Below, one piece after another: positions 1 through 17,813 of a stretch of DNA of 17,813 nucleotides (within the stretch, counting starts at the first letter, position 1; every line of letters starts with the position of its first letter). The stretch is from the IMG/VR virus record IMGVR_UViG_2529292871_000023. One strand, given 5' to 3'. This stretch comes from a virus. Taxonomy: Duplodnaviria > Heunggongvirae > Uroviricota > Caudoviricetes. The position numbers and the translations under genes were made by a program. Under the pieces are notes generated by a model, which saw only the letters and a program-made list of their open reading frames with translations, was not told the origin of the DNA and did not search any database.

Positions 1-1284
1 TCAGTGTGGTACATGGATATCGATACCACGGCTAAGTATAAATCTGGTGTTACTACCGTGAAAGACTCGGTACGACTGGATCCGTGGGTGTTTATGTTCT
101 CCGCAGGATATCGTTTTTAATTTTCTCTGCAAAACCTCTGCAAAACTGGTCATCAAATGACCAGTTTTTTTCCATTCCTTACCGCGTGCGTCGTTGTAAA
201 TATCGGTCATTTTTTGATTCGAATGGCCTAGCAAAATTTTGGTATCAACCCCCTGCTCTCTGAACAATCGCTCTGATAAAGATCTCTGCTCATGGAAAGA
301 GGGTGGGGTGCCATTAGCACGCCAGTTGTAATCCACAGAATCCCGGGCTTTTTTAAATGCAACGGTTAATGTTGCTGGCTTAACCATCCCGCCGCGCTTA
401 GCTGTCCCTTTCGCGTGATGGTGGTGCAATAGCCACGGACTAAGAACGCAATCGCGGCAGGATGACACCACATCATCTAGGGTGAGATTTAATTTATCGC
501 AACGCAGAGCCAGAGGGATGGCAATCCGGGTTCCTGTTTTTTGCTGTTCGACATGACGATAACCATCCCGGATATCCGAAAATTGCATTTTGCAAATATC
601 TGAAAGGCGCTGGCCTGTCATCAGTGCCAGCAGCATACCGCGCTGTAAAAAGTAACCATCCTTTTCCGCTGCGTTATAAATCATCATCCACTCATCAAAA
701 GTCAGTCGCTGTCTTGATATCCGCACCTGCGGTTTTTTTGCAGATTCTGCAGGGTTAAAGCCTGGCGGGACATCGCCCGTTTGCTGAGCTTCCCGGAAAA
801 CATCGATCAGTACTTTCCTGAAAATTTGTCCCATTCTGTTATGTCCTCTGGCCTTGTACTCTTCCAGTACTGATACCACATCTTTTACGGTTATGGCATC
901 TAACGGTCTGGTGCCAAAACGTTCATCAAATACCCTGAGAGGGGCCGCTTTCTGTTTCAGCGTGTTGAGTTTGATCTCGCCGTTTTCATATCTTTCCTGT
1001 TGAATTTTTCTGTAATTATTCAGAAAAATGGTAACGGTTGATGAACCGCCGGTATCACTAATAATTTTCTCCTGCAGACTGAGCATTTGTTCCATTTGCT
1101 GCCGGGCAAGACGGCTGTTCGCTTCTGCTGCAATAGTTTCTGCCAGTTTCTGGTCAATACTGCCGAGACCGTGATTTTTGCCTGTTATGGGATGCCTGTA
1201 ACGCCAGTAAACTTTGTTATTTCTTTTGTCAAAATACGGAGATAATCCCGGAACATCGGTTTTATATTTTCGCGGGCGCGCCAT
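1..1284 (-). CDS. int: Lambda-family tyrosine integrase. The reading frame appears extended at the C-terminus: removing one T from the T7 run at 165-171 would end the protein as ...DARGKEWKKLVI near position 154, close to the lambda Int terminus.
   Basis: 427-aa ORF. Catalytic residues align with lambda Int by eye: R in TGQRLSD, K in QQKTG, H-x-x-R in FHEQRSLS, H in LLGHSNQ, Y in TDIYNDARG. Start codon lies about 20 nt inside the excisionase gene, the classic xis-int overlap. Confidence 0.85.
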   Translation of the reverse strand: MARPRKYKTDVPGLSPYFDKRNNKVYWRYRHPITGKNHGLGSIDQKLAETIAAEANSRLARQQMEQMLSLQEKIISDTGGSSTVTIFLNNYRKIQQERYENGEIKLNTLKQKAAPLRVFDERFGTRPLDAITVKDVVSVLEEYKARGHNRMGQIFRKVLIDVFREAQQTGDVPPGFNPAESAKKPQVRISRQRLTFDEWMMIYNAAEKDGYFLQRGMLLALMTGQRLSDICKMQFSDIRDGYRHVEQQKTGTRIAIPLALRCDKLNLTLDDVVSSCRDCVLSPWLLHHHHAKGTAKRGGMVKPATLTVAFKKARDSVDYNWRANGTPPSFHEQRSLSERLFREQGVDTKILLGHSNQKMTDIYNDARGKEWKKTGHLMTSFAEVLQRKLKTISCGEHKHPRIQSYRVFHGSNTRFILSRGIDIHVPH

Positions 1285-1511
1285 CTTCCAGTATCCTCTT
1301 CAAAGCAGGGTGATCTGTGGCGATCACCTCCGGCTTGTTTACCATTCCGACAAAGCGAGCTTGCGGATCCACTCGCCAACGTCTTCCAACTTTTTTTGGG
1401 GAGAGGAAATATCATTCCGGCTTTAGCGTATTTACTTAACGTACTCGGAGTAGGGACCGGTTCACTGAATTCCTCTTTTGCCCACTCAGTGAGCAGAATA
1501 AGTCTTGCCAT
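1185..1511 (-). CDS. xis: Excisionase (Xis), frame-disrupted as written. The plausible intact product of about 83 aa would end near 1262.
   Basis: N-terminus MARLILLTEWAKEEF...YAKAGMIFPLPKK resembles the Xis winged-helix region. After the A7 run (T7 on + strand, 1391-1397) the listed frame becomes low-complexity, whereas the -1 frame reads KVGRRWRVDPQARFVGMVNKPEVIATDHPALKRILEDGAPAKI and stops about 20 nt inside int. Confidence 0.7.
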   Translation of the reverse strand: MARLILLTEWAKEEFSEPVPTPSTLSKYAKAGMIFPLPKKSWKTLASGSASSLCRNGKQAGGDRHRSPCFEEDTGRWRARENIKPMFRDYLRILTKEITKFTGVTGIP

Positions 1512-1575
1512 GAGCGTCGTTCGCTAATCATGGTCGCCGCCACTATAGCTGGTGGGCAACGACCGGGGTTGAACA

Positions 1576-2118
1576 TTAAAAATCAGCCTGACTCGGGATC
1601 AGTTTTTGCCAGATAGCTGAAACGTATTTTGCCTGGTAACGGGCGTCATCAAGTGCATTATGGCGCTCACCTTCGAATGGGATAGCAGTTCTGGCATCGA
1701 AGTCTATGGCTTTCCCCAGCTCAACGATTGTGCGTACATCGCGATCGTTGTAGTAACGCCACGGGCAGGGGATCCCCTGCCGTTCGTATGAACGGCGCAA
1801 AATCGTGTTGTCGAAGTTGGCTCCATTTCCCCAGACCTGAACAAAAAATTCACCGGAGTTTTCGTCGATAAATTCCCGCAATTGTAACAGTGCATCATCT
1901 AACGGGATTTCATCGGTCATAATGGCAGATTGCGCTTCGCGTGATTGCTTAAGCCACCATTTAATGGTGTCCCGATCAATGACTCCGCCAGCAGTTTCCA
2001 GATCGATAGTCTTACTAAATTCCGGTCCCATATCTCCGGTTTGCGGATCGAAAAATATTGCACCTATTGAGATGATCGGGGCATCAGGATTTTTTCCCAT
2101 GGTTTCAAGGTCGATCAT
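1576..2118 (-). CDS. DnaQ-like (DEDDh) 3'-5' exonuclease, ExoX/DNA polymerase III epsilon-like
   Basis: Start chosen at MIDLETMG (D-x-E exo I motif at the N-terminus). Later motifs WGNGANFD and HNALDDARYQAKY fit the exo II/III pattern. The listed ORF extends upstream to 2307, but that extension has no family support. Confidence 0.7.
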   Translation of the reverse strand: MIDLETMGKNPDAPIISIGAIFFDPQTGDMGPEFSKTIDLETAGGVIDRDTIKWWLKQSREAQSAIMTDEIPLDDALLQLREFIDENSGEFFVQVWGNGANFDNTILRRSYERQGIPCPWRYYNDRDVRTIVELGKAIDFDARTAIPFEGERHNALDDARYQAKYVSAIWQKLIPSQADF

Positions 2119-16090: not shown

Positions 16091-16254
16091 CGGTAAAACT
16101 GCGCCTGACTGTGGCTGCACTCCTGCTGTTTCTGGTGGTGATGGTGGATTTCACCAGCAGAATCATGTCGGTGCTGGCGGATGGGGGGCTGGTCTGCGGC
16201 ATTATGGTATTGCTGTGGCCGGTGATAAAAAGAAACAGCCTGCATAATGCTTGA
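16087..16254 (+). CDS. Small hydrophobic protein with two predicted transmembrane segments
   Basis: GTG start overlapping the TerB-like stop (GTGA). 55 aa, MTVKLRLTVAALLLFLVVMVDF...GGLVCGIMVLLWPVI. Confidence 0.4.
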   Translation: MTVKLRLTVAALLLFLVVMVDFTSRIMSVLADGGLVCGIMVLLWPVIKRNSLHNA

Positions 16255-16568
16255 TTTTTTTGTTTGCTGTTTATTAAAAACACTTCTGCATGGTGAATCC
16301 CCCTGTGCGGTGGGGCAATCAGCAAGAAGGAATATGGGGTAATCGCGGATTCAGGTGCTGATACTGAATTCACCGGGAGGCACCCGGCACCATGCTTTGC
16401 CACAAAAGTGTTATTTCTGTTTTTCTCAAACTATCATCGTTATCCCTTTATTTTCGGCTGCGCATGGCGCGGCCTTTTTTTTACGACCAGCCACTGGCAG
16501 ATGGTCATCCTGTGATTTGATTCCGCTTCCGGCTTTTTAACTCTGTTCCTCTACACGGGAGAAATTCG

Positions 16569-17813
16569 ATGTCGATTAAACATTACGATGTTATCAGGGC
16601 GGCGTCGCCGTCAGACCTTGCGGAAAAGCTGACACACAAACTGAAAGAGGGCTGGCAGCCATACGGCGGACCGGTTGCCATTACGCCGTACACACTGATG
16701 CAGGCGGTGGCTATTGAAGGAGAGCCACAGGTCGGCCCTTCATCTGAGCCGGATTGGTACTACGTCATCGTACTGGCCGGGCAGTCCAATGCAATGGCTT
16801 ACGGTGAAGGGCTTCCGCTGCCGGATTCATACGATGCTCCGGATCCGCGCATTAAACAGCTGGCGCGCCGCAGTACAGTGACGCCGGGTGGGGCTGCCTG
16901 CAGATATAACGATATTATTCCGGCTGACCACTGTCTGCATGATGTGCAGGATATGAGTACGCTGAATCATCCGAGGGCTGACCTGAGCAAAGGGCAGTAC
17001 GGCTGTGTCGGTCAGGGTTTACATATTGCCAAAAAACTGCTCCCGTATATCCCGAATAACGCGGGGATCCTGCTGGTACCATGCTGTCGTGGTGGTTCGG
17101 CATTTACCCAGGGCGCGGAGGGGACATTCAGCGAGTCCACGGGGGCCAGTCAGGATTCGGCACGCTGGGGGGTGGGCAAGCCGTTATATCAGGATCTGAT
17201 TTCCCGCACAAAAGCGGCATTGCAGAAAAATCCCAAAAACGTTCTGCTGGCCGTCTGCTGGATGCAGGGTGAGTTTGACATGAGCGCCGCCACCCACGCA
17301 CAGCAACCTGCGCTGTTTACAGCCATGCTGACACAGTTTCGTGCTGACCTCTCCGTGTTTAACGCGCAGTGCCATGGTGGCAGTGCTGCAGATGTGCCGT
17401 GGGTTTGTGGTGACACGACGTATTACTGGAAAAATACATACGCTACCCAGTACGACACCGTGTACGGCGGGTATAAAAACAGGGAGAGTGAGGGCGTTTA
17501 TTTTGTGCCCTTCATGACAGATGGTAACGGCGTCAATACCGCCACTAACGCGCCGGCAGAAGATCCGGATATTCCGGCATCAGGATATTACGGTGCGGCA
17601 TCGAGAACGAATGGAAACCAGGTATCATCAAACCGCCCGACACATTTCAGTTCATGGGCGCGCAGGAGCATTATTCCGGATCGTCTGGCAACCGCTATTC
17701 TGAACGCAGCCGGGCGCACCTCAGCCTTCATCAGTGGTAAGGCACCGGAAATCAAACCCTCGCCCGGCGGCAACACCGCCATCGGGTACCGTCTGCAGAT
17801 ACGTCCGTTCGCA
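16569..17813 (+). CDS. nanS: Prophage-type sialate O-acetylesterase (NanS-p-like, SGNH/SASA hydrolase), 3'-truncated by the window edge
   Basis: Open from ATG 16569 (GGGAGA ribosome-binding site) to the window end with no stop over 415 codons; absent from the ORF track because it is open-ended. Active-site-type motif VLAGQSNAMAYG. Position downstream of Q and the tRNAs matches nanS-p in Stx-type lambdoid prophages. Confidence 0.75.
   Translation, partial: MSIKHYDVIRAASPSDLAEKLTHKLKEGWQPYGGPVAITPYTLMQAVAIEGEPQVGPSSEPDWYYVIVLAGQSNAMAYGEGLPLPDSYDAPDPRIKQLARRSTVTPGGAACRYNDIIPADHCLHDVQDMSTLNHPRADLSKGQYGCVGQGLHIAKKLLPYIPNNAGILLVPCCRGGSAFTQGAEGTFSESTGASQDSARWGVGKPLYQDLISRTKAALQKNPKNVLLAVCWMQGEFDMSAATHAQQPALFTAMLTQFRADLSVFNAQCHGGSAADVPWVCGDTTYYWKNTYATQYDTVYGGYKNRESEGVYFVPFMTDGNGVNTATNAPAEDPDIPASGYYGAASRTNGNQVSSNRPTHFSSWARRSIIPDRLATAILNAAGRTSAFISGKAPEIKPSPGGNTAIGYRLQIRPFA

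Follow-up and report, generated by a model that had tools for sequence, protein, structure and literature searches.

Genomes of the O157:H7-O55:H7 lineage of Escherichia coli assemble poorly owing to their homogeneous lambdoid prophages (PMC7175801; PMC9413875), and drafts of this lineage are known to contain collapsed or chimeric assemblies of paralogous prophages. Apparently broken prophage genes are also known from the homopolymer errors of the pyrosequencing era and from the decay of cryptic lambdoid prophages such as the Rac- and Qin-like elements of E. coli. Here these cases are compared with the lambdoid prophage at the 3' end of ompW in E. coli O55:H7 str. USDA 5905. The window, i.e., the whole stretch of 17,813 nucleotides (nt) that was analyzed, comprises bases 219464-237276 of the 237,277-nt draft contig AEUB01000098.1 (GCA_000187365.2) and follows the prophage from the integrase stop codon up to the contig break, 1 base short of the contig end. 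It carries int, xis, a RecE-like exonuclease gene, dicB, cI/cro/ydaT, O- and P-like replication genes, paa, hokD, DUF968, rusA, Q, tRNAs, a TerB-family gene and a SASA-family esterase gene. A sequence-only reading had proposed that many of these genes are broken or extended by single-base frame changes, mostly at homopolymer runs, through either systematic indel error in the assembly or decay of a cryptic prophage. The locus resembles a collapsed or chimeric prophage assembly in that its differences from the finished genome lie only in multi-copy prophage modules, its contig breaks off in a repeated prophage gene and alleles of other prophages occur within it. Unlike in a plain repeat-broken contig, the repeat is partly threaded through, and indels at hybrid junctions mimic pseudogenes. 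The window is very probably a draft-assembly rendering of the ompW prophage in which paralogous prophages are blended, laid over three real lesions.

The best database match to the window is NZ_CP039837.1, the finished genome of the same strain, made with PacBio RS II and Illumina (PMC9413875). Nine places in this genome match the window and four of them were examined: copy A at ompW, copy B at yccA/serT (a second lambdoid prophage at 3,480,805, i.e., 3.48 Mb, 475 kb from copy A), copy C at potC and copy D at mlrA (1,859,991, i.e., 1.86 Mb, with an intact TerB gene). Collinearity with O157:H7 failed at first as a guide to copy C: the first 50-kb stretch proved to be chromosome only, and the copy was located at potC in the second. 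CB9615, the closest finished relative, provided the query proteins and a reference for nucleotide alignment. The ompW-oppF chromosome of the same draft contig (8,936 nt) served as a control and is 100% identical to CP039837.1 without gaps; draft and finished genome therefore represent one strain, and the draft is accurate wherever the DNA is single-copy. The 17,813 nt of the prophage part differ from copy A by 236 substitutions and 19 indels, that is, 255 differences vs. none in the adjoining 8,936 nt of chromosome. Judged from these sequences, the excess of differences in the prophage is not attributable to chance. The differences cluster in ten blocks (1391-3886, 4375-5038, 5583-5845, 8563, 8883-9250, 12121-12396, 13531-14336, 15228-15352, 15699-16018, and 17776-17788), between which the window equals the finished sequence exactly: int, the cI-cro-ydaT-O region, paa and Q are identical. 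All discrepancies fall in multi-copy blocks common to other resident prophages, and the single-copy flanks are identical. At copy A, xis (249 nt), the exonuclease gene (2,472 nt), rusA (366 nt) and the esterase gene are intact.

Nucleotide alignment of the window with CB9615 and with the best match gives about 20 indels. Some 14 of these occur on the 2011 draft contig alone; as the finished genome of this strain lacks them, they are assembly artefacts. Lesions at 1391, 2176, 2209, 2478-82, 3373, 3431, 3758, 14078, 16000, 17776, and 17788 are missing from the finished genome; the T7 run at 165-171 in int, the loss of 22 nt at 8183 in the O-like gene and the A7 run at 15677-15683 in the TerB gene are also found there. 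By this comparison, most of the broken genes in the window are to be regarded as assembly errors, and the three remaining lesions as real and ordinary decay. Both of the causes proposed from the letters alone occur, but unequally.

The frame breaks themselves are present in the deposited sequence. In tblastn with CB9615 proteins, the matches jump frame in xis (once, near 1392-1408), in the exonuclease gene (frames -3/-1/-2/-3/-2/-3, five jumps), in the O-like gene (8186/8228), in rusA (14077) and in the TerB gene (16000). Of the eleven sites listed by the sequence-only reading, nine correspond to true frame changes of the window sequence. Its calls stand at T7 165-171 in int, at T7 1391-1397 in xis (T6 in relatives), at T7 3431-3437 (a T6-to-T7 change confined to the draft), at C5 3759-3763 (+1 at 3758/3759), within 8183-8232, at A7 15677-15683 and at the GG near 16002 (-1 at 16000). 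A lesion that it placed near 2495-2510 does exist in the exonuclease gene, but as a missing 22-nt unit at 2478-2482; in rusA the region was correct (14074-14085), but one T is missing at 14078 and no homopolymer is altered. At G5 8563-8567, where a frame change had been suspected, there is an A-to-G substitution that leaves the frame intact, and the apparent long open reading frame (ORF) nearby is the O/P boundary, O ending at 8785 and P starting at 8778. Other indels had escaped notice: +T at 3373, -2 at 2176, -3 at 2209, a compensated +1/-1 pair at 8883/8893 in the P-like gene, and +C at 17776 with +A at 17788 in the esterase gene. The reading was largely correct for the deposited sequence; the cause is mainly draft-assembly artefact, with no biological novelty.

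Most of the substitutions can be traced to other prophages of the same genome, 206 of the 236 carrying the allele of copy B, C, or D. Painting of the window against copies A-D shows the stretch 9017-9236 to be B-type, the tRNA spacer (15228-15352) to carry C-type alleles and 15699-15920 to be D-type, and 42 of 42 consecutive sites in 13531-14336 are B-type, including a 6-nt CGTGAA. A rusA query (14085-14330) reaches at least 99% identity in 14 of 3,140 records, with CP039837.1 (3,480,805) among the four best, and a TerB query (15690-16030) does so in 2 of 809, the top one being CP039837.1 at 1,859,991. As written in the window, the exonuclease, rusA and TerB blocks occur in none of 5,426 complete E. 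coli genomes (best matches 98.1, 97.3, and 97.6%, respectively). The esterase gene, in which the contig breaks off, is common to copies A, B, C, and D. The exonuclease block is less simple. A single donor was rejected, since no complete E. coli genome, CP039837.1 included, exceeds 98.1%, and the haplotype at 2520-2860 is common (1,952 records), hence uninformative on the donor. Where two of the copies A, B, and C agree against the third, the block follows the majority at 228 of 265 sites; a consensus by majority at each site was nevertheless dropped as evidence, as the natural alleles of MS6198, O157 7386WT, and NJS001 fit equally well.

Local four-way alignments of copies A-D with the window sort the indels into three classes. 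The first are paralogue length variants and not errors (4689, 9250, 14331-14336, 15228, 15335, and 15352). The second occur in none of the four resident copies, and most lie exactly where copy A and a paralogue differ (2176, 2209, 3758, 4902, 8883/8893, 9239, 14078, and 16000). At 2176, copy A reads TTAATTAAGGGATCTG, copies B and C read TTAATTG(A/G)GTGATCTG and the window reads TTAATTGGGATCTG; at 3758, copy A has CAGCCCCCTC, copy B has CAGACTCCTC and the window has CAGACCCCCTC. The base at 9239 is G in copy A and A in copy B, and is absent from the window, while at 16000 CGG in copy A and CCG in copy D correspond to CG. The T lost at 14078 lies in the patch of greatest divergence between copies A and B, and the halves of the 8883/8893 pair are B-type and A-type. 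From their sequences, indels of this second class look like hybrids of copies. Outside this pattern, 1391 and 3431 are plain T6-to-T7 overcalls, the +T at 3373 is unexplained by any resident copy, and two bases are inserted close to the window end, +C 17776 at a distance of 37 nt and +A 17788 at 25 nt. The third class is common to the finished genome, hence real.

A blended assembly would account for these features as follows. Genome-unique segments would have been assembled correctly, and segments common to at least three other resident lambdoid prophages (yccA/serT, potC, mlrA) would have been built from pooled or mis-routed reads, so that shared blocks of the contig take alleles of other copies. 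At points where the copies differ, pooling of reads or path switching would give hybrid junctions, the consensus at heterogeneous positions dropping or adding 1-3 bases and once a 22-nt repeat unit. Further contributions would come from two T6-to-T7 overcalls and from a pair of insertions at the ragged end of the contig. The exact assembler mechanism may have been a flow-space consensus of 454 reads. The draft is reported to be a product of 454 pyrosequencing and Newbler (Rump et al. 2011); the flow-space consensus of Newbler would be expected to act like this, and 454 would account for the T6-to-T7 calls. Observed directly are the confinement of indels to multi-copy modules, the presence of the foreign alleles in the same genome, junction indels found in no copy and the end of the contig in a repeat.

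Several points weigh against this account. The artefacts are inferred by comparison with a later assembly, possibly made from a different stock of the strain. At 26 substitutions (5808-5845 and 12232-12396) none of copies B, C, and D aligns, and their source was not found among the copies examined; four more of the 236 are unexplained by B, C, or D, and the -2 at 12298 is likewise unassigned. Donors of the blocks 5583-5845 and 12121-12396 were likewise not found among the four copies, and for the hokD-rem stretch (12110-12420) there is no exact match, the best (98.7%) being Qin-like prophages of other strains, with no donor located in USDA 5905. Furthermore, the majority-of-three pattern of the exonuclease gene does not discriminate, natural alleles such as that of MS6198 fitting as well. 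To derive the exonuclease block (3.4 kb) from copies A, B, and C takes no fewer than 20 switches, with 8 mismatches remaining, so that further copies or a different process are involved.

If every frameshift were instead a genuine mutation of a cryptic prophage undergoing pseudogenization, the three lesions shared with the finished genome would be expected, as would the fimbrial pseudogene and the internal TerB stop that the finished locus also has. The int run-length gain, the O-gene deletion between short direct repeats and the TerB run-length gain with an added nonsense codon are indeed what Rac- and Qin-like prophages show. Yet such decay explains only three of roughly 17 lesions visible in the window. 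Wholesale decay is refuted for the approximately 14 indels that are absent from the same-strain finished genome and from all close relatives, and the products of draft-only indels are singletons. Six lesions in one 2.4-kb gene, beside unchanged prophage stretches and 8.9 kb of unchanged chromosome, are not a mutational pattern. General decay is thus very unlikely.

The real lesions are unremarkable and represent ordinary prophage decay. The window, CP039837.1 and CB9615 agree in a T7 run in int; in MS6198 the run is T6 and gives a 376-aa Int ending ...KEWKKLVI. With the extra T, the last 3 residues are exchanged and the protein grows by about 51 aa to 427 aa, its reading frame crossing attL towards ompW. 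The extended int ORF is antisense to the 3' end of ompW, with a 120-nt overlap in the finished annotation, and the 376-aa Int is found in related ompW prophages (MS6198, O157:H7). By tyrosine-recombinase architecture, the shift would lie about 10 residues past the presumed catalytic Tyr (...MTDIY...), and the extension may or may not affect excision. In the O-like gene, the 22-nt deletion removes one of two CAAAGACACCCAAA-containing units; it is present in CP039837.1, where PGAP marks the gene as frameshifted, and the resulting 155-aa N-terminal fragment occurs on 11 contigs. The direct repeats of this gene that contain ACCCAAA (window 8140-8230) resemble origin iterons, and with one iteron-like unit fewer USDA 5905 has both O frameshifted and the repeat number changed. 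The A7 run of the TerB gene is common to copy A, and the intact gene of copy D has A6 and starts MFGIFGKK. Copy A also carries an internal TAG stop in TerB, which the draft hides because the D-type tract overlies it. The A7 and T7 lesions are fixed in both O55:H7 genomes compared (CB9615 and USDA 5905). Upstream of paa, a fimbrial-protein pseudogene (10171-10704) is annotated with a frameshift and an internal stop in both finished relatives; it is identical in the window and hence real, and was absent from the earlier list. Elsewhere in CP039837.1, frameshifted or internally stopped genes encode the portal protein (copies C and D), Bet and the tape-measure protein (copy D) and DUF4014 (copy B), of which part may reflect true decay and part errors remaining from long reads.

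Uniform homopolymer miscalling by the sequencing platform, as in 454 pyrosequencing and independent of repeats, is as improbable as general decay. It clearly fits the T6-to-T7 changes at 1391 and 3431, and changes in short runs are also seen at 5038 (C3-to-C2), 16000 (G2-to-G1) and 17776 (C1-to-C2). Such events are a minority here, and none occurs in single-copy DNA of the same contig: all 47 runs of at least 5 bases in the chromosomal control are correct, which refutes a uniform error, and only 3 of 120 in the window differ in length from copy A, one of them as the allele of a paralogue. Moreover, the indels at 3373 (+T), 17788 (+A), 14078 (-T), 2176 (-2), 2209 (-3) and 2478-82 (-22) are not run-length changes, and the indels are accompanied by 236 substitutions matching paralogues. 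On these counts homopolymer miscalling would not be the main cause, the two T6-to-T7 calls being the only plain run-length errors. The claim of the sequence-only reading that the breaks lie mostly at runs holds only in part; its "systematic indel error" is an assembly artefact, but one caused mainly by blending of paralogues rather than by simple miscalling.

Real gene conversion would require that the ompW prophage of the 2010-11 stock truly exchanged tracts with resident prophages and that the finished stock did not. The tracts are clean resident alleles (e.g., the 42 of 42 B-type sites), and long homologous regions are common to the lambdoid prophages of this lineage (PMC7175801). However, recombination leaves clean junctions and not gains or losses of 1-3 bases exactly at heterologous positions, the exonuclease block would take at least 20 switches in 3.4 kb, and six lesions in one gene would stay unexplained. 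The contig also stops at a repeat, and single-copy sequence is identical in draft and finished genome. Conversion as a full explanation is extremely unlikely. There is only a slim chance that the stock of the 2011 draft had undergone multiple conversions with the yccA, potC, and mlrA prophages, which would explain the substitution tracts and not most indels; in that event the two laboratory stocks would differ by real and rapid recombination among the prophages of one genome, recorded in the tracts. Programmed ribosomal frameshifting or phase variation at runs has a negligible probability, since, although A7 or T7 runs occur at some of the sites, their length is not conserved, homologues and the finished genome are single-frame at every draft-only site, and the real A7 and T7 lesions are fixed in CB9615 and USDA 5905. 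To our knowledge, no site lies in a gene class that uses recoding.

The blended assembly affects the genes of the window in different ways (Table 1).

Table 1. Coordinates of truly mutated and draft-altered features in the window.
Feature	Position	Strand	State in the window
Integrase gene	1..1284	-	427 aa; identical to finished copy A and CB9615 (WP_000113678.1)
xis	1185..1511	-	Draft-only T6-to-T7 at 1391-1397; 108-aa product vs. 82-aa excisionase
RecE-like exonuclease gene	1576..4023	-	Split into four ORFs by six draft-only indels
Intergenic block	4375..5038		B/C-type alleles; hybrid +1 at 4889-4902; C3-to-C2 at 5038
O-like (DnaT-like) replication gene	7767..8785	+	Real 22-nt deletion at 8183 between 14-nt direct repeats CAAAGACACCCAAA
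P-like replication gene	8778..9239	+	Hybrid +1/-1 at 8883/8893; B-type tract 9017-9236; -1 at 9239
DUF968-rusA tract	13531..14336	+	42 consecutive alleles of prophage B (yccA)
rusA	13997-14367	+	Broken by draft-only missing T at 14078
tRNA spacer	15228..15352	+	C-type alleles; three of the indels here are alleles of paralogues, not errors
TerB-family pseudogene	15659..16090	+	Real A7 15677-15683; D-type tract 15699-15920; draft-only -1 at 16000
SASA-family esterase gene	16569..17813	+	Cut by contig end; draft-only +C 17776, +A 17788

The exonuclease gene is the most affected, with draft-only indels of -2 at 2176, -3 at 2209, -22 at 2478-2482, +T at 3373, T6-to-T7 at 3431-3437 and +1 at 3758/3759, and the genes of copies A, B, and C are all intact at 2472 nt. 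Its length is 2,451 nt in CB9615 vs. 2,472 nt in the three USDA 5905 copies and MS6198, and the copy number of a 21/22-nt repeat unit (window 2440-2500) varies among natural alleles. Odd ORF products were looked up by exact sequence in a collection of 15 billion proteins. The 108-aa "Xis," a 95-aa exonuclease N-terminus and RusA pieces of 47 and 85 aa are each found on one contig only, that of the USDA 5905 draft; as the sequence-only reading had warned, naive ORF calls misstate these products. The exact 153-aa P-like product likewise occurs on the draft contig alone, and its 90% cluster has 976 members. The ORF at 12331-12591, downstream of hokD, is Rem-like (rem of prophage Qin) and has an 86-aa product, WP_000980980.1, which occurs on the draft contig only and heads a cluster of three sequences; this RefSeq/UniRef entry probably rests on chimeric sequence. 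Between tRNA-Ile2 (CAT) and tRNA-Arg (TCT), ARAGORN finds a third tRNA-like gene (window 15324-15399), which in finished copy A is a tRNA-Lys (TTT) without PGAP annotation. Overlain by the C-type spacer alleles, this element is left in the window with a malformed anticodon loop of 2 nt.

The value of the result is practical. Real decay accounts for only 3 of about 17 lesions seen here, and pseudogene counts or "prophage decay" read from the draft would be inflated about five-fold at the ompW locus. The USDA 5905 draft is the sole source of the broken products EFX27088-EFX27113; together with the RefSeq/UniRef singletons derived from them (e.g., WP_000980980.1 and WP_000139456.1), among them the 108-aa "excisionase," the exonuclease fragments and the two RusA fragments, they describe products that probably do not exist. 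Where frameshifts cluster in multi-copy prophage modules of old drafts, they should be compared with the other prophages of the strain before being given a biological reading.

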